IMG/VR virus record: IMGVR_UViG_2778261534_000007 | Location: 1-40,456 of that record | Source: a virus | Taxonomy: Duplodnaviria > Heunggongvirae > Uroviricota > Caudoviricetes | Strand: one strand, 5' to 3' | DNA length: 40,456 bases | Shown: positions 2,443 through 40,456 of the stretch, in pieces | Layout of the letters: each line of letters starts with the position of its first letter | Numbering within the stretch: position 1 is the first letter of the stretch | Program-made: the position numbers and the translations under genes | Notes under the pieces: generated by a model | The model's input: the letters and a program-made list of their open reading frames with translations, nothing else | The model's database searches: none | What the model was told of the DNA's origin: nothing

Positions 2443-3243
2443 TTAAGCGGCGTCGGTGAATTCAAATAAAAAACCGGCTTGCGCCGGCTCTCTCATCTTT
2501 CTGTCTACCCATGCTGATATCGATGGTGGGTGCACCTTTTCAATAGCTGCGCGAAGTACAGCTGTACGTGCCAGTTTGTCGGTAATCTCAGGAAATCGCT
2601 TCTCTGTCTTCGGTACGTTAACAGCAACATTAGTAGAATCCGCACTGGCGAACGGATACATACCAAGAACTCTCACGTCGAGCATTCGAAGACCATGAAT
2701 TTTCACTTTCAAATTACGATTGATATAAAGCTCAGTGAAAACTTCATCCATTCTCTGTTCCCACCATTTAGAGCGTATGTGCCTGTGTGGGCCGCAGCAT
2801 CCAATCGCCACCCATTCAAATTTGCCAGAAAGGCGTAAAAGACGTTCAATTGATTCGTCGGTATGCCAGACCGGAACCGCTTTTGATTTTAGCCAATCAG
2901 GAACCAACTCAATCTGCTCGTCGTTTTCTGCCTCTGTCCCTTCGATAACGTCAGGTATAAGAAACCATTCAATTCTGCTGAACCACTTCCCAACAAAGTC
3001 GTAGAATTTTGCTCGTCTCTTACTCCAGTCTACCGGAGTGCCTTTCTTTAATGCTTTCATCCAGTCGCTAAAAGCGCCGTTATCAAGGCGTATATCACAA
3101 GGGAACATGGCAATCTTTTTCATCTGCTCTGGTCTGGCAAATGAAACAAAAGCCCCACCATCACGGTAAAGGGCTTTAATCAGCATATCTGTAGGGGCAT
3201 GCTCATCCCCCCATATTGGGCTGCCGTGAAAGTGGATGGTCAT
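2443..3243 (-). CDS. Hypothetical early-left accessory protein, 266 aa
   Basis: Long ORF in the early-left operon; family not recognised by inspection. Confidence 0.6.
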   Translation of the reverse strand: MTIHFHGSPIWGDEHAPTDMLIKALYRDGGAFVSFARPEQMKKIAMFPCDIRLDNGAFSDWMKALKKGTPVDWSKRRAKFYDFVGKWFSRIEWFLIPDVIEGTEAENDEQIELVPDWLKSKAVPVWHTDESIERLLRLSGKFEWVAIGCCGPHRHIRSKWWEQRMDEVFTELYINRNLKVKIHGLRMLDVRVLGMYPFASADSTNVAVNVPKTEKRFPEITDKLARTAVLRAAIEKVHPPSISAWVDRKMREPAQAGFLFEFTDAA

Positions 3244-4097: not shown

Positions 4098-4592
4098 TCA
4101 CTCTCCTTTGGTGCGAATGCCAGTGGTACTCATTCTCCTGATTTCCCAGAGCACACGAGGAATACCACCGTTTCCGACCGGATCGCGTTTACTCCGCAGG
4201 GCGACGCTTGATTCCGCCCAGCTTTTTCTTGGAGGAAGCTCTTTCACACGAACAAAACCAGCTGCGCGAAGAGATGCTCCTGATTCATCTGCCTGGGTGT
4301 ACGTAATACAACGTTGATAACCCATAGCTTTTGCTGCCCGCCAGACAGCACCATAAAGCGCGCTGTTAGCGTTGCGTTCTCCTGTGGTACATGTGCGATT
4401 TACTTCAAGCGTTAATCCATCGTCCAAATGTCGTGCAACAGGTCGACCAGCTGTCGCCACACCTATCAATTCTCCGGCATTATTTCTCAGACCAATGCTG
4501 AATTTATGCCCCACTGGTGGTTTATTGTGTCGGTGGTGCTGTGCGATAAATTCCTGCGCCGCTTTCAGCGTTATAGGTGAAATGACCATCAC
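4098..4592 (-). CDS. Hypothetical early-left accessory protein, 164 aa
   Basis: ORF translationally coupled to neighbours; family not recognised by inspection. Confidence 0.55.
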   Translation of the reverse strand: MMVISPITLKAAQEFIAQHHRHNKPPVGHKFSIGLRNNAGELIGVATAGRPVARHLDDGLTLEVNRTCTTGERNANSALYGAVWRAAKAMGYQRCITYTQADESGASLRAAGFVRVKELPPRKSWAESSVALRSKRDPVGNGGIPRVLWEIRRMSTTGIRTKGE

Positions 4593-5194
4593 TCAGACTC
4601 CTCCTTGATGCCAGCGGCGCGCTCGGCTTCACTTTGTTCCCAAAACCACTTGTGAAGCGCCATAAGCTTTTCGTCAATCGGTGCATATTTGCGATTAAAG
4701 TAGGCCTGAGCATCTTTCTCAGATTCGTCCGGTAATTCGCCAGGGCCAAACAGTGTGTTATAAATCCATGCCAGTCCGCTCTTAGCGTCGCCAGTTGCCT
4801 GCCATTCGATAATGGCAGCCTGCATGACCAGAATGTTTTTCCCGATTAATAGGTCCAGTTCTTTGTACCGGTTGCGGATGTATGCATTCTCGCTTTGTAA
4901 TTCAGCGTTTCGCTTCTCTGCTGCTTCCAGCTCATCCAGCAGCGCCAAGACGGTAGCCGGATTGGCTGCGGCGATGAATTCAGCATTGGCCTGCTGTTCC
5001 ATTTGGAAATCTTCATCGAAACCGCTTTCAGGATGCGCTCCTTCAATTCTGCAAATGGGAATATATCCAGCAACTTCACGATGAATTAGCGCATCATCAC
5101 CATCAAATCGGCCCTCTCCATATTCGAGCGACCACACACCACACGTTGCTTTTTCTGCCTTGGCACGCAGTACCTGATAGTCAATCTTGCTCAC
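4589..5194 (-). CDS. Ead/Ea22-like coiled-coil phage protein
   Basis: Central heptad/coiled-coil segment ([30 protein letters not shown]); likely GTG start at 5194 preceded by AAGGAGG. Confidence 0.55.
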
Positions 5195-5358
5195 TGGTTG
5201 CCTCCTTTGCGCCACATCGCATTCAGATATTTGTTTTGATTCACTGATGGAAAAGAATTTCTCTTAAGCAATTCCTCTCTCGATGGCATTGGCTTTACGC
5301 GTTGGCGAATAATCATTTCTGCCGGAAGAATGCCTGGATTGTATGCAAGTCCTCTCAT
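5191..5358 (-). CDS. Small hypothetical protein (55 aa), below the ORF-track size cutoff
   Basis: ATG at 5358 preceded by AAAGAGGAA RBS; stop overlaps the start of the next gene. Confidence 0.3.
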
Positions 5359-5374: not shown

Positions 5375-5689
5375 TTAATTTATTCGTATGCCTGCTCTTT
5401 CTTCATCGAGTTTTTTTAGCTTGTATCGCATAGCTCTTACTGAATAAATTGAGCGGCAGGTTGCAATTGCTATTTCTTCTGCGGAGAACTTACCGAAAAG
5501 TGATACTTCGGCTCTTGTCCAGCGTCTTCCACGAAGTCGGCTAACAATGTCAGCGCCAATCCTTGTTGCTTTCGCCATTACTGCTTTTTCAGTCCTTTCC
5601 AGTTTTTCAGCGATAACTTCAACTGGCATTGTCGCCGCCACTTCGCGCAAGAAATCGACTTCCCATTTCTCCCATGGAGTCTTTTTCAT
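5375..5689 (-). CDS. Hypothetical phage protein, 104 aa
   Basis: ORF in operon context downstream of the RecT module. Confidence 0.5.
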
Positions 5690-5700
5690 AGGCGATACCG

Positions 5701-6189
5701 TTATTTGATAAGAAGTGAAGGTTTCCCAACTTTGAGTTGAGCACCGGGGATATTTATTCCTGCTTTTAGTTGGTGTTTGATTGCCAGTTTGTCGGCTTTA
5801 ATTGTCGTTTCAAACTCAACGTATTCAGGAGGAAGGGCGCTTGAGTCGATGATTTCTACAGTTTCTGACGGTTTGCGGATTGTTACCTGGTGAATACCTG
5901 CTCTAATCTTTTTCTTGCCAACCATTTCAAGCGATGAGGCTATATATGCCATAATGCTATCAATCTTATTTTGAATTACTGCTGCTCGTTCATTCAGTGA
6001 CTTTGCCTCGTCCTTGAGGCGTTCAGCATAACCAGATTCATTTTTAATAATGGCAAGAAGTTGCTCTATTTTATCGGTAAATTCTCCTTCCATGCCTTCT
6101 ATTGTGTCAGCAATCATCTCTGGTTCTAAATCTGAATCCATCAATTTTGCGTATTCATTGGCAATTTCATATAGTTTGCTCACTGGCAA
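5701..6189 (-). CDS. Recombination-associated protein, siphovirus Gp157-like (162 aa)
   Basis: Immediately downstream of and overlapping recT; acidic helical N-terminus; Gp157-family assignment is by resemblance and synteny. Confidence 0.5.
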   Translation of the reverse strand: MPVSKLYEIANEYAKLMDSDLEPEMIADTIEGMEGEFTDKIEQLLAIIKNESGYAERLKDEAKSLNERAAVIQNKIDSIMAYIASSLEMVGKKKIRAGIHQVTIRKPSETVEIIDSSALPPEYVEFETTIKADKLAIKHQLKAGINIPGAQLKVGKPSLLIK

Positions 6190-7069
6190 CCTCCAGTTTC
6201 GCTTTGCATTCTATGTAAATGGCTTGTATGTTCTGCTGCAATTTCATTCCAGATGTCAGGCGATATGCTTCTGCAAAATATCTCTTCAAATCATCCATGT
6301 TTTCAGACTGAGCCATTTCATCACAAAGAAGTTGTGCTTTATCCGTTATTTCCTGCTGGCGTTTCCGTTCATCTTCGCGGATATCTTCCTCTGATTTGTG
6401 CGGCATAACTGGTTCCTGATGCATACCTTCATCTTCGTTAAGCAGGTGAATGGCATTATCCAGTCGCTGGGCTTTAGGCCAGTATTTGCTGGCGCGTTTA
6501 ACTATTGTTTTACGCGCCATCTCTTCCCAGAATGTCTTCCACGGTCCATTCTTTGCCTTGCTCGTTGCTTCCACAGCTTTAATTTCTGCCAGACTCATTT
6601 CTTCAGTGAGGTAGTCACCATCTGCTGTTTTAACCGTACAATAACCACCAACAATAGAGCCTCGCTCACCAAATGCGTTGTATTTGTGGGTTGGTGCTGA
6701 ATCAAGGCCGTTTGATTCATAGGTGTCGTTTGAGTACACCAGTTTGCATTGCCCCCACTTAATTGATCCTGTCGATTGCGCAAGATGAAGTAATCCCATG
6801 TAACTGATATCAAGGCAAACCATGCCGTCGCGAGGAACCAGATAAGCCAGTTTGCTGGCCGGGTTTAAGGTGATGCCGATCGCCGCAACATTGATGATGG
6901 CGTTCTGTGCGCTGGTTGGATTTGCCAGTGCCGTTTTAGCCAGGTAATCATTTTTCTGGAAATACTGAATTGCAAACTGGCTTTCCTTAGCCCATGTCAC
7001 CGTCTGTTCAGTCAATGCTCCGCAGAATAACTGCTCCTGCTGTTTAACGAATTCAACGATATTGCTCAT
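6167..7069 (-). CDS. recT: RecT-family single-strand annealing recombinase (300 aa)
   Basis: RecT-family similarity across the length (NVAAIGITLNPASKLAYLVPRDG...); located in the position of lambda bet. Confidence 0.8.
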   Translation of the reverse strand: MSNIVEFVKQQEQLFCGALTEQTVTWAKESQFAIQYFQKNDYLAKTALANPTSAQNAIINVAAIGITLNPASKLAYLVPRDGMVCLDISYMGLLHLAQSTGSIKWGQCKLVYSNDTYESNGLDSAPTHKYNAFGERGSIVGGYCTVKTADGDYLTEEMSLAEIKAVEATSKAKNGPWKTFWEEMARKTIVKRASKYWPKAQRLDNAIHLLNEDEGMHQEPVMPHKSEEDIREDERKRQQEITDKAQLLCDEMAQSENMDDLKRYFAEAYRLTSGMKLQQNIQAIYIECKAKLEVASEQTI

Positions 7070-7377
7070 GCAGCTTCTCCAAAAATGTGTCTGCGTTTAA
7101 ATATTGCGAAGGCATATTCAGCCTTAACTCTTTCGGTTATTGCATCCCAGAACCATTCAGCGGCTTTTTCCTGATAGTTACAGTCATCATCTTCCAGCCA
7201 GTCGATAGCGTCCTTAGTGTGTTCATCTGGTTTATATGAGCGAAGCATTTCGCTTATTGGGTCGCAACGTTTGCAGAGGCGATCAACTTCACTGTTAATT
7301 CGTTCGTAATCTTCATCAGTAAAACTTGCGATTATTTGCGATATTTCACGCTTATCATTCAGAGTCAGAATCATCAT
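7066..7377 (-). CDS. Hypothetical acidic phage protein upstream of recT (103 aa)
   Basis: ORF overlapping the recT start by 4 nt; acidic, Trp-rich; no family recognised. Confidence 0.5.
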   Translation of the reverse strand: MMILTLNDKREISQIIASFTDEDYERINSEVDRLCKRCDPISEMLRSYKPDEHTKDAIDWLEDDDCNYQEKAAEWFWDAITERVKAEYAFAIFKRRHIFGEAA

Positions 7378-7458
7378 CTTTCTCCTGTTCTTTGTGCTGA
7401 TTGAGCATTTTGTTCATCTGACGAATGAATTCTTCGTCTGACCAGTTATCTGTAAAAC

Positions 7459-7581
7459 TCATTTCCTGCGATACCACGGAAGGTTGATAGCTGATTTCAT
7501 CGCTTTATTTGCTTCAAGCCACATTTTTGAATCACCAATAAATCTGGCTATTACTGCTTTGTTTTGTGCCGCACGAAGCAT
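7459..7581 (-). CDS. Kil-like small protein (40 aa), below the ORF-track cutoff
   Basis: ATG 14 nt after the cIII stop; translation MLRAAQNKAVIARFIGDSKMW... resembles my recollection of lambda Kil (IATFIGDEKM). Confidence 0.4.
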   Translation of the reverse strand: MLRAAQNKAVIARFIGDSKMWLEANKAMKSAINLPWYRRK

Positions 7582-7595
7582 CTGGTGATTAATGG

Positions 7596-7730
7596 CTATT
7601 TCATTGCGCATAACGCCTCCAGTTGTTTCTTTGCTGCTCTAATTAATTGTTTAACTCGGCGTGATAATTCAGATTCGTGCGGGTAGAAAGCGGACATGAC
7701 GCCGCTACCCGCGAGCTGAAAGTGCATCAT
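7596..7730 (-). CDS. cIII: cIII-like protease inhibitor (44 aa)
   Basis: MMHFQLAGSGVMSAFYPHESELSRRVKQLIRAAKKQLEAL resembles lambdoid cIII; AAGGAG RBS before the ATG at 7730. The longer listed ORF (to 7835) runs through a terminator hairpin and is rejected. Confidence 0.7.
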   Translation of the reverse strand: MMHFQLAGSGVMSAFYPHESELSRRVKQLIRAAKKQLEALCAMK

Positions 7731-7793
7731 GGGTAACTCCTTATATTTGATTGCATAACGAAAACGCCTCGAGTGAAGCGTTATTGGTATGCA

Positions 7794-7820
7794 TATAAAA
7801 AGGCCCTCACACTGGAGGGC
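7794..7820 (-). terminator. Intrinsic terminator (tL1-like) between the 156-aa gene and cIII
   Basis: Minus-strand hairpin GCCCTC-CAGTGT-GAGGGC followed by CTTTTTAT. Confidence 0.5.
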
Positions 7821-7924
7821 AAAGAAGATTTTCAATAATCAGAACAAGTCGGCTCCTGTTTAGTTACGAGCGACATTGCTCCGTGTATTCACTCGTTGGA
7901 ATGAATACACAGTGCTTATTTGTA

Positions 7925-8395
7925 CTAATAAAATACCCAATTTTCTGTTTCTTGGTTGTGTCCAAAGTTATATTCAATATCTGGTGTTGATGTATCAATA
8001 TTCTTCATCCCATCAACAAGAGTTGATACAACAGCCAAATCTTGTTTGATTCTCATTAAATGGTATTTCTTCCGGCGCAATAAACTTTCAATGGCAAGTT
8101 TCTTCGTTGGGAATGCAAAAGATCTTTCTGCATTTTTTGCTACTTTCTTAATTGCATATCTATTTCTCTTTTGTTTCCATTCCTGTAACCACTGATTTGG
8201 TGCTGGTTTAAAATTAACAATCCAATGCGCAGGAACCAACCATGCATAATGCTCTGTCTGATGAAAAGCTATATATTGAAGTGCGAATATTTTGATTCCA
8301 TCTTCTTCAACTGTCGCCTGGAATCTCCAGAAAACAGGCATTCCATCATGTTCAGTTTCTGATTCAGGAAAAGGTACGCTCCATGATTTTGTCAT
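7925..8395 (-). CDS. Hypothetical AT-rich accessory protein (156 aa) in the N-cIII (sieB/ral) slot
   Basis: ORF with markedly lower GC than the flanking N and cIII genes; followed by a 9-bp-stem inverted repeat (7883..7910); no family recognised. Confidence 0.6.
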   Translation of the reverse strand: MTKSWSVPFPESETEHDGMPVFWRFQATVEEDGIKIFALQYIAFHQTEHYAWLVPAHWIVNFKPAPNQWLQEWKQKRNRYAIKKVAKNAERSFAFPTKKLAIESLLRRKKYHLMRIKQDLAVVSTLVDGMKNIDTSTPDIEYNFGHNQETENWVFY

Positions 8396-8403
8396 ATCTC
8401 ACC

Positions 8404-8730
8404 TCAAATAAGTGGCTTGCTGCCTAATTTCATTTTCTGGCGACCAACACAAGTCACACCCATTTCACTGCGTGGCTTGCTGTACCATGTGCGCTGATTC
8501 TTGCGCTCAATACGTTGCAGGTTGCTTTCAATCTGTTCGTGGTATTCAGCCAGCACCGTAAGGTCTATCGGATTCAGTGCGCTTTCTACTCGTGATTTCG
8601 GTTTGCGATTCAGCGAGAGAATTGGGCGGTTAACTGGTTTTGCGCTTACCCCAACCAACAGGGGATTTGCTGCTTTCCATTGAGCCTGTTTAGCTGCGCG
8701 GCGTTCGCGGCGGCGTGTTTGTGCATCCAT
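8404..8730 (-). CDS. N: Antitermination protein N (lambda-type)
   Basis: Near-identity to lambda N as recalled (MDAQTRRRERRA.KQAQWKAANPLLVGVSAKPVNRPILSLNRKPKSRVESALNPIDLTVLAEYH...). Confidence 0.9.
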   Translation of the reverse strand: MDAQTRRRERRAAKQAQWKAANPLLVGVSAKPVNRPILSLNRKPKSRVESALNPIDLTVLAEYHEQIESNLQRIERKNQRTWYSKPRSEMGVTCVGRQKMKLGSKPLI

Positions 8731-9222: not shown

Positions 9223-9882
9223 TTAACTAAATGTCTCTTCAGGCCACTGGCTGGCGATAACTTTCCCTACTACGGAACAGCTATCATTGCATGGAATCAT
9301 TGGATATTGCGGGTTTAGTGGCTGTAGGAACACCTGACCGCTATCCCTGATCAGTTTCTTGAAGGTAAACTCGTCACCACCAAGTCTGGCTATGCAGAAA
9401 TCACCTGGCTCAACAGCCTGCTCGGGGTCAACGAGAATTAACATCCCGTCAGGAAAGCTTGGCTTCGATCCTGTTGGCGCGGTCATGGAATTACCTTCAA
9501 CTTCAAGCCAAAACGCACAATCACTGGCTTTTTTGGTTGTGCTTACCCATCTCTCCGCATCACCTTTGGTAAAGGTTCTAAGCTCAGGCGAGAACATCCC
9601 GGCCTGAACATGAGAAAAAACAGGGTACTCATATTGTTTTTTAACGGGGGCAGATGAGTATTCGCCAACAGGTGAAAATGTACCGTCGTGGTTGAATGAG
9701 ACGTTATCAATACCAAGGTATTTAAACACCACACCAATCTCGTCAAGAGATGGATGACGAGATCCGCGCAACCAGTGACCAATTCCACCCTGCGTCATAC
9801 CAAGCTCTTCAGCTAACTTCTCTTGAGTTATGCCGAGCTCTTTCATTCTGGATCTAGCCAGTTCATACCATTTCATTTTCAT
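9223..9882 (-). CDS. cI: CI-type prophage repressor (HTH N-domain plus LexA/S24-like autocleavage C-domain)
   Basis: C-terminal ~150 aa match lambda cI as recalled ([22 protein letters not shown]...[48 protein letters not shown]...); N-terminal HTH ([23 protein letters not shown]) differs from lambda. Start at 9882 or 9876; the listed ORF start (9924) is a TTG extension. Confidence 0.85.
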
Positions 9883-9938
9883 ACCCTTATTATTACGCTC
9901 TGTACTAAAACCATCCATGCACAAGATGTATTTTTTGT

Positions 9939-10641: not shown

Positions 10642-11286
10642 ATGACATACGAAAATGACAAATTCCAGGTTCTGAAGAGCATGAAGGTGCCAGATGATTT
10701 TAAATCAAATGGCTTTGTTTATGTGCTTTCGAATGAGTGCATGCCGGGAATTTATAAGATTGGGATGACTAAGCATTCACCAGAAGTTAGGGCTAAAGAA
10801 ATTTCAGCCTCTACTGGCGTTCCTAAGCCATTTAAGGTGATAGCAGCCTTTCATTCAAATAATCCCGCATCAGATGAAAAACTTATTCATAAAGCCTTTG
10901 CAAAAGAGAGGCTTAGTGATAATCGAGAGTTTTTCAAGCTTGAAGATAATGATCTTTATGAATCTCTAAATGAAATAAGGGCGCTGGTTGGCCCTGAAAG
11001 AAATGGCGAGACGGCAGAATACGCAATTTACGACTCATTCATTTCTTTTCGCCATGAAAATGAGCTTGATCTTAATGAGGAGCTTATAGAGCAAGGTCTG
11101 GGTAGTGTAGTTGGTCATCTTCCTGCGGTGAAAAATTTCCTTATTCGCGCCGGAATTGATTACGCGAAGCAACTGATAAGCAAATATAACTCATCGATAG
11201 TTATTAATACAGATGGCAGTGTGGTGATGGTTAAGTCTCTTGAAGCCCAATGCTTTGATGCGGAGGTTGGAAATGAGCCTTGCTGA
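10642..11286 (+). CDS. T5orf172 / GIY-YIG-like domain protein (214 aa), inserted between cII and O
   Basis: N-terminal motif GFVYVLSNECMPGIYKIGMT (GIY...YIG-like spacing) with a downstream conserved Arg and acidic residues; AGGAG RBS; more AT-rich than its neighbours; 3' end overlaps the O start by 14 nt. Confidence 0.6.
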   Translation: MTYENDKFQVLKSMKVPDDFKSNGFVYVLSNECMPGIYKIGMTKHSPEVRAKEISASTGVPKPFKVIAAFHSNNPASDEKLIHKAFAKERLSDNREFFKLEDNDLYESLNEIRALVGPERNGETAEYAIYDSFISFRHENELDLNEELIEQGLGSVVGHLPAVKNFLIRAGIDYAKQLISKYNSSIVINTDGSVVMVKSLEAQCFDAEVGNEPC

Positions 11287-13738: not shown

Positions 13739-14050
13739 ATGGACGAATCAAGAAAGCAGTTTGAGGAATACGTTGCCAAAAAATTGAGATTACCATTCGA
13801 GATGATAACCGAGGCAAGAAATGGTGATAGGTACTTTGCATTTTCAAGCATGGATATTCGTCACTCCTTAAATGAGTGGTGGGCTTTATGGCAGGCATCG
13901 CGAGCAGCTATCGAGATTGAGTGTCCTGGAAAAAGAGAGCGTGAGGCATTTTCTACCGATTTCGAGGATGGGGTCACATTTGGTTATAACGACGCAATTA
14001 GTGAATGCGAAGGACTGATTCGCGCTGCTGGAGTCAAAGTGAAGGAGTAA
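13739..14050 (+). CDS. Hypothetical nin-region protein (103 aa)
   Basis: GGGGA RBS; ATG at 13739 immediately after the upstream stop; stop adjacent to the NinB RBS. Confidence 0.5.
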   Translation: MDESRKQFEEYVAKKLRLPFEMITEARNGDRYFAFSSMDIRHSLNEWWALWQASRAAIEIECPGKREREAFSTDFEDGVTFGYNDAISECEGLIRAAGVKVKE

Positions 14051-14052
14051 CG

Positions 14053-14463
14053 ATGAAGCAAACAATCTTCCTCCGAACTAAGCAACAACAGCAAGCTGCA
14101 ATAAATGCCATCCTCGCAACACCACTCGATAAAGACAAGCCAGTCACCATCCGCATTACTGACTACAAGCGCAACCTTGACCAGAACGCAAAATTTCACG
14201 CGATGCTGGCGGATATCGCACGTCAGGTTCAATGGTGCGGCAAATGGTTAAAACCGGAACAATGGAAGGTTTTGTTGATCAGCGGTCATGCAGTGGCAAC
14301 AAAGCAGGAAGCTGATGTTTTGCCCGGGCTTGAAGGCGAATACGTCAACATTCGCGAAAGCAGCGCGCAGATGAGCGTGAAGCGCATGGCAAGCCTGATT
14401 GAGTACACGACAGCATGGGCTATTGGTCAGGGTGTCAGATTTACCGACAGGAGGTACGAATGA
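14053..14463 (+). CDS. ninB: NinB recombination protein
   Basis: Similarity to lambda NinB as recalled; GGAG RBS before the ATG at 14053. Confidence 0.8.
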
Positions 14464-14986: not shown

Positions 14987-15155
14987 CCCATTCCAATCCC
15001 TTCAATACCAGAAAGAAAGCGTTGAGCGAGCTTTAACGTGCGCTAAATGCGGTCAGAAGCTGCATGTGCTGGAAGTTCACGTGTGTGAGCACTGCTGCGC
15101 AGAACTGATGAGCGATCCGAATAGCTCAATGTACGAGGAAGAAGACGATGGCTAA
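14979..15155 (+). CDS. ninF: NinF-like protein (58 aa), below the ORF-track cutoff
   Basis: Manual translation [58 protein letters not shown] matches lambda NinF as recalled; overlaps the NinG start. Confidence 0.65.
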
Positions 15156-15759
15156 ACCAGCGCGAAGACGATGTAAAAATGATGAATGTCGGGAATGGTT
15201 TCACCCTGCATTCGCTAATCAGTGGTGGTGTTCTCCAGAGTGTGGAACCAAGATAGCACTCGAACGACGAAGCAAAGAACGCGAAAAAGCGGAAAAAGCA
15301 GCAGAGAAGAAACGACGACGAGAGGAGCAGAGACAGAAAGATAAACTGAAGATTCGAAAACTCGCCTTAAAGCCCCGCAGTTACTGGATTAAACAAGCCC
15401 AACAAACCGTAAACACCTTCATCAGAGAAAGAGACCGCGACTTACCATGTATCTCGTGCGGAACGCTCACGTCTGCTCAGTGGGATGCCGGGCATTACCG
15501 GACAACTGCTGCGGCACCTCAACTCCGATTTGATGAACGCAATATTCACAAGCAATGCGTGGTGTGCAACCAGCACAAAAGCGGAAATCTCGTTCCGTAT
15601 CGCGTCGAACTGATTAACCGCATCGGGCAGGAAGCAGTAGACGAAATCGAATCAAACCATAACCGCCATCGCTGGACTATCGAAGAGTGCAAGGCGATCA
15701 AGGCAGAGTACCAACAGAAACTCAAAGACCTGCGAAATAGCAGAAGTGAGGCCGCATGA
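15148..15759 (+). CDS. ninG: NinG / Rap recombination endonuclease
   Basis: Similarity to lambda NinG with conserved Cys clusters ([10 protein letters not shown]...CSPEC; CISCG...CVVCNQHK). Confidence 0.8.
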
Positions 15760-38055: not shown

Positions 38056-39054
38056 TTATATTAAATGTTTTGTTATTTTATTCTTTGATAGTAAATAACA
38101 AATTAAAGCTGAAATTGCGAAATATATTATGGTGAGTACAGGTATCATATACCATGCATTAACAGGACTGTAGCCAAACTTTATCTCTCTGACTAATATA
38201 AAATGTATGAAATAGATACCAAAAGATAGTCCTGAAATTGTCCTTATAAAGGAAAGCACATGATCAGATACACGATCCTTAACTGAAATGCAAAACATGA
38301 ACGTGAAGATAGCACTTGCAAAAACAAATGGAGCAGTATTTTTAAAGAAAAGCTGTTCCGGCCTACCAACCTTGCTGGACCACCATATTGTAGCTAAAAC
38401 AGTAGCCACGCTAAAGAAGACAACAAGCAGGAAATAAATTATCCAACTAATAGTTGAAATTCTGTCTCTATATCTTCTTAGTATAGCGCCAACAAGAATG
38501 TATATGCCATTCTCTGAAATAAAATCCAACTTAAGCCATGTAAGGCTAAACATTGTTCTGTGAATGTACGGAACGAGTGAGTGAACGTAAAACAACATCG
38601 CTATTATCATCAGTATATAATACGATGGCAAATTCTTAAGTGGATTACTTATTATTGGTAAAAACATATACATGCAAATATATGTATACATAAACCATAA
38701 ATGGACCTCTGAATGTTGAAATAATGACGATATTTTAAGTCCGTTATAGTGATTATTATATAAAAAATAAAACAGCCACCAAAACATAAAAGGAATAAAG
38801 AGTTTTCTAACCCCTTTTGCTAAATGATTTGAAGCCTCTATCTCCTTTTTATAATAAAGGTATCCTGTTATTATAAAGAATAACCCAATACATTGTCGTG
38901 TAAATGAACTATACGTTGTTATAGTATTCCATGAGTCGCTGAATGCAAGGAAGTAAGCTCCTGACGCATGTAACATAACCACAAGAAAGATAGCTAAACT
39001 TCTTGCTATATGCACTTCATTTAACTCTATTCTATTTTGTCGAATATCAGACAT
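38056..39054 (-). CDS. Integral-membrane acyltransferase (acyltransferase-3 family; O-antigen acetylase Oac-like), 332 aa
   Basis: About 10 predicted TM helices; N-terminal motif RSLAIFLVVMLHA typical of the acyltransferase-3 family; very AT-rich; located between tailspike and integrase, where seroconversion genes sit in P22-like phages. Confidence 0.75.
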   Translation of the reverse strand: MSDIRQNRIELNEVHIARSLAIFLVVMLHASGAYFLAFSDSWNTITTYSSFTRQCIGLFFIITGYLYYKKEIEASNHLAKGVRKLFIPFMFWWLFYFLYNNHYNGLKISSLFQHSEVHLWFMYTYICMYMFLPIISNPLKNLPSYYILMIIAMLFYVHSLVPYIHRTMFSLTWLKLDFISENGIYILVGAILRRYRDRISTISWIIYFLLVVFFSVATVLATIWWSSKVGRPEQLFFKNTAPFVFASAIFTFMFCISVKDRVSDHVLSFIRTISGLSFGIYFIHFILVREIKFGYSPVNAWYMIPVLTIIYFAISALICYLLSKNKITKHLI

Positions 39055-39298: not shown

Positions 39299-40456
39299 TC
39301 ACTCCACCTTTTCATCAATCCAGTCCGCCCACCACTGCATCATTTCTCTGCGCTTATCGAGATACTGAGCATGGTTGTAAATCCCGCGCACAGAACCGCC
39401 GTTGGCATGTGCCAGTTGCACTTCAATAGCATCAGCAGGCCATTCGTGCTCGTTCATAATCGTGCTGAATTCATGCCTGAATCCGTGACCGCTTTCCAGA
39501 CCCTCATAGCCGATTTGTTTGATCACAAGCAGTACCGCGTTCTCGCAGATTGGCTTCTTCTTATCGTTGCGACCGGCAAAAACAAACTCTGATACTGGTT
39601 TGGTGATTGAGCTTAGCGTAGTGAGAAGTTCAACCACCTGGTCTGACATAGGAACCACATGAATTTTGCGTCCCTTCATCACACTGGCGTCGATGGTGAT
39701 AATCCTGTTTTCAAAATCGACGTTCTTCCATAGCATAGAACGAAGCTCTTTTGTTCTGAGGGCTGTGTAGCGTAAAACTTTGGTCGCAATGAGCGATACG
39801 ATGCTTCCTGAAAATGTTGCCAGTGCTTTGTTAAATGCCGGGATCTGGTCTGCAGGAAGAAACGGGAAGTTTTTCTTGCGGTATCCCTTCATGGCGTCAG
39901 CAAGGTCAGGTGCCGGGTTATATTTAGCCCTACCAGTGACAATAGCGTAACGGAAAACCTCGCCGCATCTTCTGCGTGCTTTGTTGGCTCGCTCCATTGC
40001 CCCGCGATCTTCAAATCTGCGGATTACTTCCAGCAGTTGCATCGGCTCAATATCCTGAATTTCAAGGCCGCCGATGATAGGTAAAATGTCGTCATCAAAC
40101 ATTTTTGCAAGTTCAGTCGCATAGGCGGCTGACCAGACTTGCTTCTTGTGCTCGTACCATTCCTTGTAAATCGCACTAAAGGAATTGTTGTTAGACGAAG
40201 CCTTTTTCGCCTTTACCGGATCGATGCCAACCGAGATGTCTTTCCTCGCAGTCCATGCCTTATCCCTTGCCTCCTGCAAAGTCATAAGCGGATATTTTCC
40301 GACGGTCAGGATTTTCTCCTTACCGTCAATCTTGTAGCGAAGCTGCCATACCTTTTTCCCTGATACAGGAACATAAAGGTACAGGCCATTACCATCGAGA
40401 AGGCGGTATGGTTTTTCTTTCGGCTTTGCTGCCTCAATCTGCTTAACGGTGAGCAT
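39299..40456 (-). CDS. intS: Tyrosine site-specific integrase (P4/IntS family), 385 aa
   Basis: SAM-like and catalytic domains (R...HGFRHEFSTIM...Y region); start codon is the last base of the window, so the promoter and attL/argW lie outside. Confidence 0.9.
   Translation of the reverse strand: MLTVKQIEAAKPKEKPYRLLDGNGLYLYVPVSGKKVWQLRYKIDGKEKILTVGKYPLMTLQEARDKAWTARKDISVGIDPVKAKKASSNNNSFSAIYKEWYEHKKQVWSAAYATELAKMFDDDILPIIGGLEIQDIEPMQLLEVIRRFEDRGAMERANKARRRCGEVFRYAIVTGRAKYNPAPDLADAMKGYRKKNFPFLPADQIPAFNKALATFSGSIVSLIATKVLRYTALRTKELRSMLWKNVDFENRIITIDASVMKGRKIHVVPMSDQVVELLTTLSSITKPVSEFVFAGRNDKKKPICENAVLLVIKQIGYEGLESGHGFRHEFSTIMNEHEWPADAIEVQLAHANGGSVRGIYNHAQYLDKRREMMQWWADWIDEKVE

Follow-up and report, generated by a model that had tools for sequence, protein, structure and literature searches.

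RecT and its putative partners in a phage recombination cassette of known type with no recognisable exonuclease

Introduction

Where does an annealing protein find its single-stranded substrate if the DNA ends on which it should act are supposedly capped by a protein of the MuGam type? This question, which concerns both recombineering and phage defence, is raised by a RecT gene in the 40,456-nucleotide stretch of phage DNA that was analysed here in full and is referred to below as the window. The first-pass annotation had described RecT as flanked by a 103-residue acidic protein and a Gp157-like protein, and all three genes have been confirmed on the minus strand, RecT by PF03837 and Gp157 by PF05565. 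The arrangement is not an unusual one; the nuclease-less RecT cassette is a known, common and catalogued type of module, and 84 of the 246 lambdoid Rec modules in the survey of Zheng et al. 2025 are given there as having no nuclease (PMC12315714). As the design is common, and as sequenced phages carry almost the same cassette, a RecT gene without a nuclease matters little in itself. What remains of interest for recombineering and phage defence is the putative binding of Gp157 by the C-terminal domain of RecT, together with the role of the 103-residue protein, here called p103. Our preferred reading, to which we assign a probability of about 0.7, is that the locus is a Rec module of the HK140 type, carried by a lambdoid prophage that resembles P22 and packages its DNA by the headful mechanism, and that RecT is accompanied in it by a MuGam-type Gp157 and by neither an exonuclease nor a single-strand binding protein (SSB).

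Layout and boundaries of the cassette

The features on which the argument depends are as follows, in the direction of transcription.

7459–7835, minus strand: kil and cIII of the pL operon, the proximal boundary of the cassette (PF06301, E 1.7e-20; PF08134, E 7.8e-30)
7355–7477, minus strand: p40, an acidic 40-residue ORF between kil and the p103 gene (phrog_17766, phrog_2123)
7066–7377, minus strand: p103, a 103-residue acidic helical protein, the first gene of the cassette, in the 'gam slot'
6167–7069, minus strand: RecT, whole gene (PF03837)
6425–7069, minus strand: annealing core of RecT, residues 1–215 (PF03837, phrog_148)
6167–6424, minus strand: C-terminal domain of RecT, residues 216–300 plus the stop codon, a partner-specific module and candidate docking site for Gp157
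5701–6189, minus strand: Gp157 (Sipho_Gp157; PF05565, phrog_253), in the slot downstream of RecT
5375–5689, minus strand: p104, a basic 104-residue protein with a tandem HTH-like character (phrog_323, the P22 Abc1 / Mu gp9 family)
5191–5358, minus strand: DUF2737 gene, the distal boundary of the exchangeable cassette (PF10930, E 9e-32)

The stop codon of p103 overlaps the ATG of RecT (ATGA), and the p40 ORF overlaps the start of the p103 gene. Gp157 probably starts at the GTG at 6183, because a GGAGG lies 7 nt upstream of it and because the resulting length of 160 residues is that of the homologues; the gene would then overlap the 3' end of RecT. Given these overlaps of starts and stops, p103, RecT and Gp157 are translationally coupled. 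The module extends beyond the three genes first noted, in that the p104 gene also belongs to it and the conserved p40 ORF is probably a further member.

The edges of the cassette are visible in phages HK97 and HK022. Their similarity to the window, at ~98–99% identity, is confined to two stretches outside the cassette that together make up ~15% of the query, and between these stretches the two phages carry erf and abc2. Elsewhere in the window there are P22-type terminase, portal and coat genes, arranged in the P22 gene order. There is no Chi site on either strand of the window, which fits the anti-RecBCD class outlined by Zheng et al. 2025 (PMC12315714) and not their Chi-rich, RecBCD-using class.

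Distribution

The cassette is ~93% identical in phages HK140, mEpX1, Kapi1 and Gally, all of which are viable (the HK140 alignment covers 90% of the query at 93.2% identity), and it is found in 266 of 5426 complete E. coli genomes. A decayed, non-functional module is ruled out by this conservation and by the presence of the cassette in viable phages. A first scan of viral contigs returned only loci of 97–99% identity, which can be used for counts of gene architecture but not for diversity. According to the catalogue of Zheng et al. 2025, HK140 has a strand-annealing protein of type 4 and a MuGam-type anti-RecBCD protein without a nuclease, and the gene content of the window agrees with the definition of the HK140-type nuclease-less Rec module given there (PMC12315714).

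Search for an exonuclease

The earlier observation that no RecE- or lambda-Exo-like gene lies near RecT holds for the whole window. Neither lambda Exo/YqaJ (PF09588) nor RecE/DUF3799 (PF12684) appeared in Pfam and PHROG scans of the early ORFs. Two local HMMs, one made from lambda Exo and three YqaJ sequences and the other from a pair of RecE/DUF3799 sequences, matched nothing at E ≤ 10 in a six-frame translation of all 40 kb, and no tblastn hit to an exonuclease in the window scored better than E 0.33. The six-frame search also rules out an exonuclease elsewhere in the prophage. The related loci agree: neither the 80 nearest viral loci nor the 20 species-level loci with Gp157 had an exonuclease within 5–6 kb.

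One locus (L091) encodes a 281-residue protein, between a p103-like gene and Gp157, that bears the PHROG label 'exonuclease' (phrog_2489, phrog_7838); this protein has no Pfam or PDB match, and the Exo and RecE HMMs do not match it.

It might be argued that one of the flanking ORFs is itself a highly diverged exonuclease, but the one point in favour of this is positional, Gp157 occupying the exo slot of lambda and phi80. Searches with p103, Gp157 and p104 turned up neither a nuclease family nor a nuclease fold. The p103 model is all-helical and without a PDB match, and relatives of p103 occur together with real exonucleases; in Gp157, no His/Asp/Glu cluster or metal-binding set is conserved across divergent members, the conserved residues being mostly hydrophobic. 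We therefore regard a hidden exonuclease in either flanking ORF as scarcely credible.

The two domains of RecT

RecT matches PF03837 over residues 31–214 with 116 bits (cut-off 24; E 2e-33), which places it in the RecT family, and it matches phrog_148 with E 2.5e-91 and the solved RecT structure 7UB2 in the PDB with E 7e-5. Its core is 58% identical to that of phi80 RecT; despite this, the C-terminal domains of the two proteins are unrelated. That of phi80 RecT is 76% identical to the C-terminal domain of lambda Beta, and an Exo gene follows. The window-type domain, for which there is no Pfam family, is present (at 46–77% identity) in 14 of the 14 examined RecTs of other loci that precede Gp157 and in none of those examined that precede an exonuclease gene. 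Judged by sequence, the C-terminal 85 residues of RecT track the type of downstream partner, Gp157 or Exo. A 448-residue ORF in which a RecT remnant is joined to a window-type C-terminal domain (locus L111) was left out of this evidence; it probably belongs to a rearranged prophage.

These observations bear on an alternative in which blocking RecBCD is not the main task of Gp157. It would instead be the dedicated physical partner of RecT, standing in the place of Exo; it would attach to DNA ends, or to a nuclease or helicase of the host, and recruit or load RecT there through the swapped C-terminal domain. The contrast with phi80 and the consistency of the Gp157-linked RecTs both point this way, as does the alternation of Gp157 and YqaJ/Exo in the slot downstream of RecT. 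In addition, a true Gam or GamL is encoded alongside Gp157 in 9 of 18 species-level RecT–Gp157 loci, so that Gp157 is no simple substitute for Gam and a purely anti-RecBCD role for it would be partly redundant. However, the link between domain and partner may reflect the physical linkage of adjacent DNA instead of an interaction; the Gp157-linked RecTs share one type of core and hence are not independent observations; and in Firmicutes phages Gp157 precedes Erf or Sak4, a position that Mu Gam homologues also use. We consider this alternative unlikely, if by no means negligible.

Gp157 and its possible relation to Mu Gam

Gp157 is a member of PF05565, matching positions 1–162 of the 162 in the profile with 126 bits (cut-off 28.6; E 1.5e-36), and 29 of 29 relatives match the same family. 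It also matches phrog_253, which is labelled 'Mu Gam-like end protection', with E 4e-53. An old Pfam note on Gp157 suggested phage resistance. RecBCD modulation is the accepted reading for proteins of the Gp157 type, and for Gp157 the first-pass suggestion that the small partners of RecT modulate host RecBCD is supported by the label of phrog_253 and by the class to which the HK140 module is assigned (PMC12315714).

The relationship to Mu Gam can be examined directly. Mu Gam itself belongs to phrog_491, not phrog_253. The match of Gp157 to the Mu Gam family, PF07352, is nearly full-length (42–161 against 30–147 of 149) but falls below the cut-off (16.4 bits versus 28.3; E 0.009); 8 of the 29 relatives also match, the best with E 0.001. 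With hhalign, Gp157 and Mu Gam are co-linear over 110–141 columns and share motifs, at E 0.028 and a probability of 1.8%, the alignments being shallow (Neff ~3); in three runs with growing alignments the E value improved only from 0.11 to 0.028. The predicted structure consists of a long helix and a small beta domain. Fold searches with Gp157 did not return the Gam-like structure 2P2U, and a profile search of the PDB gave only coiled-coil noise, whereas a published HHpred comparison of another PF05565 member with 2P2U reached 99.4% (PMC10530707). Our own sequence comparisons are thus only weakly positive for homology between Gp157 and Mu Gam, and lie below significance.

In view of this lack of confirmation, it could be supposed that RecT acts only on single-stranded gaps at replication forks, where ends would not have to be processed, and that Gp157 does something unrelated, in replication or exclusion for instance. 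Such a scheme accords with the ability of RecT-type annealing proteins to promote recombination of oligonucleotides by themselves. Beta recombination can dispense with lambda Exo if its DNA substrate is single-stranded from the outset (PMC3945230). Against the scheme, RecT and Gp157 are tightly coupled in translation and neighbour each other in 18 of the 20 species-level loci; Gp157 accompanies three different families of annealing protein across phyla (in one locus, L199, it is followed by an Erf-like ORF); and a headful-packaging phage, as described by Zheng et al. 2025, needs end-to-end recombination to circularise (PMC12315714). An unrelated Gp157 seems to us improbable.

The acidic protein p103

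The first gene of the cassette encodes a protein of 103 residues with a pI of 4.65 and a net charge of -9. It matches phrog_3486 ('unknown function') with E 4e-59, and belongs to no Pfam family; a Pfam search with 36 members of its own family gave no consistent assignment. An AlphaFold2 (AF2) model (pLDDT 79) predicts an all-helical protein with five helices, for which Foldseek returned nothing from the PDB at E < 1, Gam crystal structures included, and sequence searches of the PDB with three profiles returned nothing below E 0.1. An exhaustive search found 51 relatives, each of ~100 residues. As in the window, where p103 is the first gene of the Rec module and lies directly upstream of the annealing-protein gene, distant relatives (the context of which was taken from exact-sequence contig look-ups) stand directly upstream of RecT plus YqaJ, of RecT plus Gp157 or of a DUF3799 exonuclease, and phage SEN22 has a member of the family with a RecE-like core. 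Because the family occurs together with YqaJ or RecE-like exonucleases, p103 does not replace the exonuclease, and that half of the first-pass suggestion about the small partners is not supported.

A different proposal is that p103 is a third, hitherto unrecognised type of Gam-like RecBCD inhibitor, beside lambda Gam and phi80 GamL. Its position is that of GamS and GamL, after kil/cIII and overlapping the start of the annealing-protein gene; its size is similar (GamS has 98 residues and GamL 92); and it is acidic and, in the model, helical. In other RecT–Gp157 loci it is lambda Gam or phi80 GamL, not p103, that fills the gam slot (the 9 of 18 loci mentioned above), and in phage Dewey lambda Gam replaces p103 in an otherwise homologous cassette. 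p103 and Gam or GamL were never found together within ±5–6 kb in the sampled loci. The family also works with different cores, the RecE-like one of SEN22 among them, as a host-directed factor would. There is, too, some sequence likeness: the p103 HMM matches one true Gam (locus L099) with E 3e-4 over 75 co-linear columns, and hhalign of p103 with Gam gives probabilities of 15–27% over 24–25 columns (best E 7e-4), in a segment with the motif DDDxx[YF]QE[KR]xAE.

On the other hand, that Gam is the only one of 120 Gam proteins to score against the p103 HMM; none of the 36 family members matches the lambda Gam family PF06064 at E ≤ 1, and in the reverse search, with the Gam HMM, none of the p103 family scores at E ≤ 10. 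The structural comparison with Gam was negative, as noted above; p103 shows no similarity to GamL, and BLASTP or hhalign comparisons with P22 Abc2, Abc1 and Arf gave none either. The cassette would, moreover, then hold two anti-RecBCD functions. We put the proposal forward as tentative. If p103 were a new RecBCD inhibitor, it could prove useful as a tool and might trigger defence systems that guard RecBCD. Most likely, p103 is either a host-nuclease inhibitor or a general accessory serving several cassette cores. Overall, the profile comparison of the flanking ORFs proposed in the first-pass annotation yielded no exonuclease; for p103 it gave no Abc relationship, no Pfam Gam match and a weak likeness to Gam, and for Gp157 a sub-threshold match to Mu Gam.

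The small proteins p104 and p40

p104 (pI 10) matches phrog_323 with E 2.8e-20, as do P22 Abc1 (E 1.3e-23) and Mu gp9 (E 5.2e-29), whose gene immediately precedes Mu gam; this makes p104 a member of the Abc1 / gp9 family, although the regions of phrog_323 matched by these three repeat proteins overlap only partly. With BLASTP, p104 matches Mu gp9 (E 5e-5) but has no pairwise match to P22 Abc1; the remark 'similar to P22 Abc1' for the 104-residue gene in the Gally record thus holds through the shared PHROG only. Five of 20 species-level loci have the p104 gene beside Gp157, as does phage SEN22. p40 (pI 4.2) matches phrog_17766 (E 8e-16) and phrog_2123 (E 5e-10). Of the 80 nearest viral loci, 75 contain it, and it recurs in three further species; BLASTP aligns it with P22 Arf over 12 residues only (E 0.007).

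How the cassette may work

On the preferred reading, that of an HK140-type module with RecT and a MuGam-type Gp157, the cassette would be transcribed leftward from pL. A Gp157 dimer, to judge from the family assignment, would cap double-strand ends and keep RecBCD off them. RecT would anneal complementary single strands and in this way circularise the terminally redundant injected genome; it would also help the phage to change over to replication that forms concatemers, and would promote mosaic exchange. The single strands would come from host activities or from gaps at replication forks, and not from a dedicated phage 5'–3' exonuclease; the precedent is P22, whose Erf needs no nuclease of phage origin. 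RecT probably docks Gp157 on its C-terminal 85 residues, much as Beta docks Exo on its C-terminal domain. p103, at the lambda gam position, may have either of the roles given above, and p104 would be an accessory of the Abc1 / Mu gp9 type. The main difficulty for this scheme is that tight capping by Gp157 leaves the resection of ends for annealing to be explained.

A bolder combination would make the cassette a three-part analogue of lambda Red, in which Gp157, as a Ku-like end-binder, has supplanted Exo as the physical partner of RecT and docks on its swapped C-terminal domain, and p103 is a new Gam-like inhibitor of RecBCD. This is distinctly unlikely in our judgement; were it true, it would show an annealing protein acting at DNA ends without a nuclease of its own.

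Comparison with known systems

The nearest system is the Rec module of HK140, mEpX1 and Kapi1, which has the same genes in the same order at ~93% nucleotide identity, and from which the window differs in nothing material. As the HK140 class is defined by Zheng et al. 2025, it and the window alike combine an anti-RecBCD protein and an annealing protein with neither nuclease nor SSB; the main text of that paper does not discuss the 103- and 104-residue genes as members of the module (PMC12315714).

Lambda Red (gam-bet-exo) and the phi80 system (gamL-recT-exo) occupy the same operon position as the window cassette, after cIII/kil, and share with it three slots, for a small acidic protein, an annealing protein and a partner. 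The third slot is filled by Gp157 in the window and by a YqaJ-type exonuclease in lambda and phi80, and the C-terminal domain of the window RecT is unrelated to the Exo-binding, Beta-type domain found in those phages. In the first slot the window has p103, which, unlike the lambda and phi80 proteins, is no recognisable Gam or GamL.

The arf-erf-abc1-abc2 region of P22 resembles the window in lacking a nuclease, in belonging to a headful-packaging phage and in having the annealing-protein gene followed by one of the Abc1 family. The annealing protein is Erf in P22 and RecT in the window, and Abc2 (phrog_656), of which no homologue was found in the window, has Gp157 as its counterpart; the likeness of the window cassette to Arf is limited to the 12 residues already mentioned. 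The gp9–Gam pair of phage Mu is similar in that a small HTH protein of the D5-like/Abc1 family adjoins an end-protection gene. The gene order in Mu is, however, the reverse of that in the window, there is no annealing protein at the Mu locus, and Mu Gam (phrog_491/PF07352) and Gp157 (phrog_253/PF05565) are assigned to different families.

Finally, Firmicutes phages have modules in which Gp157, Mu Gam, DUF2483 or DUF1351 is followed by Erf or Sak4 and then by SSB, with Gp157 and Mu Gam homologues in the same position beside the Erf and Sak4 genes, whereas RecT in these phages is typically found with YqaJ or DUF3799 (PMC8093625). These modules are like the window in setting a Gp157-family gene beside an annealing-protein gene without an exonuclease, and unlike it in their order, with Gp157 ahead of the annealing-protein gene and SSB behind it, and in having Erf or Sak4 as the annealing protein.

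Layout of the prophage and its pL operon

The window spans an entire lambdoid prophage, P22-like and headful-packaging, in an E. coli chromosome. At its left end a host cscB-type permease gene adjoins a TorI-type excisionase gene (1778-1978), whose counterpart in matching E. coli genomes carries the annotation TorI; the integrase gene (39299-40456) lies at the far right end, past the tailspike gene and an Acyl_transf_3 gene (38056-39054; possibly an O-antigen acetylase). Integrase and excisionase genes at opposite prophage ends presumably represent the KplE1/Sf6-type layout. No tRNA genes were found inside the window. The pL operon is on the minus strand and runs leftward from the repressor gene (9223-9924).

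Genes of the pL operon, listed leftward
8404-8730, minus strand: N
7925-8395, minus strand: 156-aa ORF
7596-7835, minus strand: cIII
7459-7611, minus strand: kil
7355-7477, minus strand: p40, a 40-aa ORF
7066-7377, minus strand: p103, a 103-aa protein
6167-7069, minus strand: RecT (PF03837, E 2e-33)
5701-6189, minus strand: Gp157-family protein (PF05565, E 1.5e-36)
5375-5689, minus strand: p104, a 104-aa protein
5191-5358, minus strand: DUF2737

Beyond DUF2737 lie Ead/Ea22, Mom-like, DUF551, ASCH-like and DpdA/tgt-like genes, and then the excisionase gene. This early-left operon includes two candidate DNA-modification genes (2443-3243 and 4098-4592): its queuine-tRNA-ribosyltransferase/DpdA-like gene matches phrog_887 (E 1e-102) and has no match in Pfam, and its Mom-like gene matches phrog_1384 (E 1e-43) and scores 24 bits with Pfam Mom, just under the cut-off. 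A MUG113/T5orf172 gene, of a family that we take to be GIY-YIG-like, lies at 10642-11286, with a cII-like gene on one side and the replication gene O on the other, which is not a usual position in the early-right operon.

The three central ORFs proved to be as the first-pass annotation had described them, namely RecT, a Gp157-family protein downstream and acidic p103 (pI 4.65, net charge -9) upstream. They are translationally coupled, because the p103 stop codon and the RecT ATG overlap and the likely start of Gp157 is a GTG within the final RecT codons (GGAGG is 7 nt upstream, and homologues are of 160 aa).

Absence of an exonuclease and conservation of the cassette

It had also been noted that no phage exonuclease is encoded near RecT, and this is true for the whole window. 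Pfam and PHROGs gave no exonuclease-family match for any early ORF; the six-frame translation of the window gave no match at E<=10 to an Exo/YqaJ HMM (lambda Exo plus three YqaJ proteins) or to a RecE/DUF3799 HMM (two proteins); and the best tblastn E-value for exonucleases in the window was 0.33. The remaining recombination genes of the window are confined to the nin region: NinB/Orf (14005-14463) and NinG/Rap (15148-15759).

The cassette is conserved: Kapi1, mEpX1, HK140, Gally and other phages match it at ~93% identity across 90-100% of its length, and 266 of 5426 complete E. coli genomes carry it. The order p103-RecT-Gp157 is found in 77 of the 80 nearest IMG/VR loci, most of which also have p40, p104 and DUF2737; an exonuclease or Gam lies within 6 kb of the cassette in none of the 80. 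HK97 and HK022 have near-identical DNA outside the cassette only, with erf and abc2 in its place, and SEN22 has a RecE-like exonuclease in the cassette position, a pattern of ordinary lambdoid cassette exchange.

Gp157 and the C-terminal domain of RecT

Gp157 matches PHROG 253 ('Mu Gam-like end protection', E 4e-53), and mEpX1 and HK140, as re-annotated in RefSeq, and Zheng et al. (PMC12315714) give the same reading. Another PF05565 protein matches 2P2U with an HHpred probability of 99.4% (PMC10530707). Our own homology tests were weakly positive: Pfam Phage_Mu_Gam aligned with nearly the full length of Gp157 (16.4 bits, E 0.009, cut-off 28.3) and matched 8 of 29 relatives, the best of them at E 0.001, and hhalign gave a co-linear alignment with Mu Gam of 110-141 columns, with shared motifs (E 0.028, probability 1.8%). 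In the AF2 model (pLDDT 79, pTM 0.42), a helix at the N-terminus is followed by one of 67 residues and by a small beta domain at the C-terminus. We accept Gp157 as probably a MuGam-type protein. That it is itself a nuclease is unlikely, since the residues conserved among divergent Gp157 proteins are mostly hydrophobic and include no conserved metal-binding set.

In phi80, where the order is gamL-recT-exo, the RecT core is 58% identical to that of the window, whereas the final 73 residues bear no relation to those of the window and share 76% identity with the C-terminal domain of lambda Beta; in L087, a locus with a p103-like gene, the same Beta-type tail is joined to yet another RecT core, the third. 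Each of the three Beta-type tails precedes a lambda-Exo-type nuclease gene. A window-type tail (46-77% identical) is present in 14 of 14 examined RecT genes of other loci that precede Gp157, and a Beta-type tail in none of them, these RecTs being all of one core type and so not independent observations of a tail-partner link; the pattern could be simple linkage of adjacent DNA. Beta binds Exo through its C-terminal domain, and PDB entry 6M9K is, we take it, this domain solved in complex with Exo. The entry is listed in Zheng et al. (PMC12315714). By analogy, residues 216-300 of the window RecT would be a putative Gp157 docking site.

In Candidatus Erwinia dacicola a 155-aa ORF, HNH-endonuclease-like by eye, stands between RecT and Gp157 (L098 4537-5004), and an HNH endonuclease is annotated in the cassette of phage Louie too; in Pseudenterobacter timonensis, the place of RecT upstream of Gp157 is taken by ORFs that are IS-transposase-like by eye (L105 3738-4942).

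The acidic protein upstream of RecT

RecT directly precedes Gp157 in 18 of 20 species-level Gp157 loci, and the ORF directly upstream of RecT was tallied in these.

ORF directly upstream of RecT in RecT-Gp157 loci
p103 family: 7/18 (an eighth locus, L108, stops short of Gp157)
lambda Gam: 4/18
phi80-type GamL: 5/18 (81% identical to the characterised RecBCD/SbcCD inhibitor)
107-aa acidic protein: 1/18
no recognisable short ORF: 1/18 (L111, a rearranged locus)

The slot alternates: p103 never occurs together with Gam or GamL among the species-level Gp157 loci sampled, and in phage Dewey lambda Gam takes the place of p103 within a cassette that is homologous in other respects. The GamL-type proteins all end in C-P-F (L097 3818-4096, L104 3802-4080, L115 3800-4084, L109/L110 3701-4090), much like the I-P-F at the tip of the tail of E. 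coli SSB, to which many DNA-processing enzymes are recruited.

No Pfam family, PDB sequence match or fold match was found for p103, the AF2 model of which has five helices (pLDDT 79). An exhaustive profile search gave 51 relatives of ~100 aa, down to ~25% identity, in which a terminal E-[AV]-A is conserved at the C-terminus. Similarity to Gam is weak: the p103 HMM matches one bona fide Gam (E 3e-4, 75 co-linear columns), and hhalign of p103 against Gam gives a probability of 27%, around the common motif DDDxx[YF]QE[KR]xAE, compared with 95% for GamL against Gam (N-terminal half only). Given where it lies, how large it is, its charge and this weak similarity, we regard p103 as a candidate host-nuclease inhibitor of the Gam type, a tentative assignment to which we give a probability of about 0.35.

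Gene contexts of p103 relatives (P, relative; L, locus)
P0160, L087: p103-like, RecT, YqaJ
P0179, L089: p103-like, RecT, YqaJ
P0172, L090: cIII, p103-like, RecT, YqaJ
P0188, L088: p103-like, DUF3799 exonuclease
P0165, L093: cIII, p103-like, RecT, Gp157
P0150, L094/L095: kil, p103-like, RecT, Gp157
P0177, L091/L092: cIII, p103-like, 281-aa protein, Gp157

In SEN22 (L197 2576-4588), near-identical copies of p103 (97/103 residues) and p104 (93/104) flank the RecE-like exonuclease and a 189-aa protein (phrog_11517) rather than RecT-Gp157; the core pair is swapped and both flanking accessories are retained. p103 is therefore a conserved first gene of such cassettes, working with several cores. The earlier suggestion that the small flanking proteins replace the exonuclease or modulate RecBCD was half right: p103 is no nuclease replacement, because it co-occurs with real exonucleases in other cassettes, and the second part finds a counterpart in the probable MuGam-type Gp157. 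The 281-aa protein (L091/L092 4318-5163), between the p103-like gene and a divergent Gp157, has no match in Pfam, the PDB or the Exo and RecE HMMs; it matches 'exonuclease' PHROGs, with phrog_2489 (E 8e-92) aligned over only the C-terminal third of the 728-position profile.

p104 and p40

p104 matches phrog_323 (window 5375-5689, E 3e-20), as do P22 Abc1 (L005 7971-8255, E 1e-23) and Mu gp9 (L006 5482-5781, E 5e-29), the gene for which is immediately upstream of Mu gam; the module thus has an Abc1-type fourth member, and a small tandem-HTH family adjoins end-protection/anti-RecBCD genes in three phage types. BLASTP of p104 against Mu gp9 gives E 5e-5, across a repeated HTH-like unit. Recombination is aided by P22 Abc1, according to Zheng et al. 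(PMC12315714). The p40 gene (7355-7477), a conserved acidic ORF, overlaps the start of the p103 gene; it matches phrog_2123, labelled 'recombinase', and has a stretch of 12 residues in common with the P22 Arf N-terminus.

Proposed function and comparison with known modules

We suggest that RecT would anneal terminally redundant ends and replication intermediates, that Gp157 would cap DNA ends and keep RecBCD off, that single strands would come from host activities or fork gaps, as in the P22 precedent, and that p103 may act on the host side. Gam or GamL accompanies Gp157 in 9 of 18 RecT-Gp157 loci, against one phage only, HK639, with duplicated anti-RecBCD functions in the published panel (PMC12315714), and this leaves room for Gp157 being mainly an end-recruiting partner of RecT.

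RecT without an exonuclease is a known, common arrangement and not an unusual one, and its interest is therefore low to moderate. Two leads are of use: p103 may be a new inhibitor of the Gam type, and the RecT C-terminal domain may pair with Gp157. The Chi site (GCTGGTGG) is absent from both strands of the whole window, which is not significant alone, since ~0.5 per strand is expected by chance, and which fits the anti-RecBCD class of the survey by Zheng et al. and not its Chi-rich class, the members of which use RecBCD (PMC12315714). That survey, of 325 lambdoid phages (Zheng, Casjens, Davidson, Amundsen and Smith, Genome Res 2025; PMC12315714), counts 84 nuclease-less Rec modules among 246, gives 46 members to the P22 class (with just an anti-RecBCD function and an annealing protein), and names as an example HK140, with a strand-annealing protein of type 4, a MuGam-type anti-RecBCD function and no phage nuclease or SSB.
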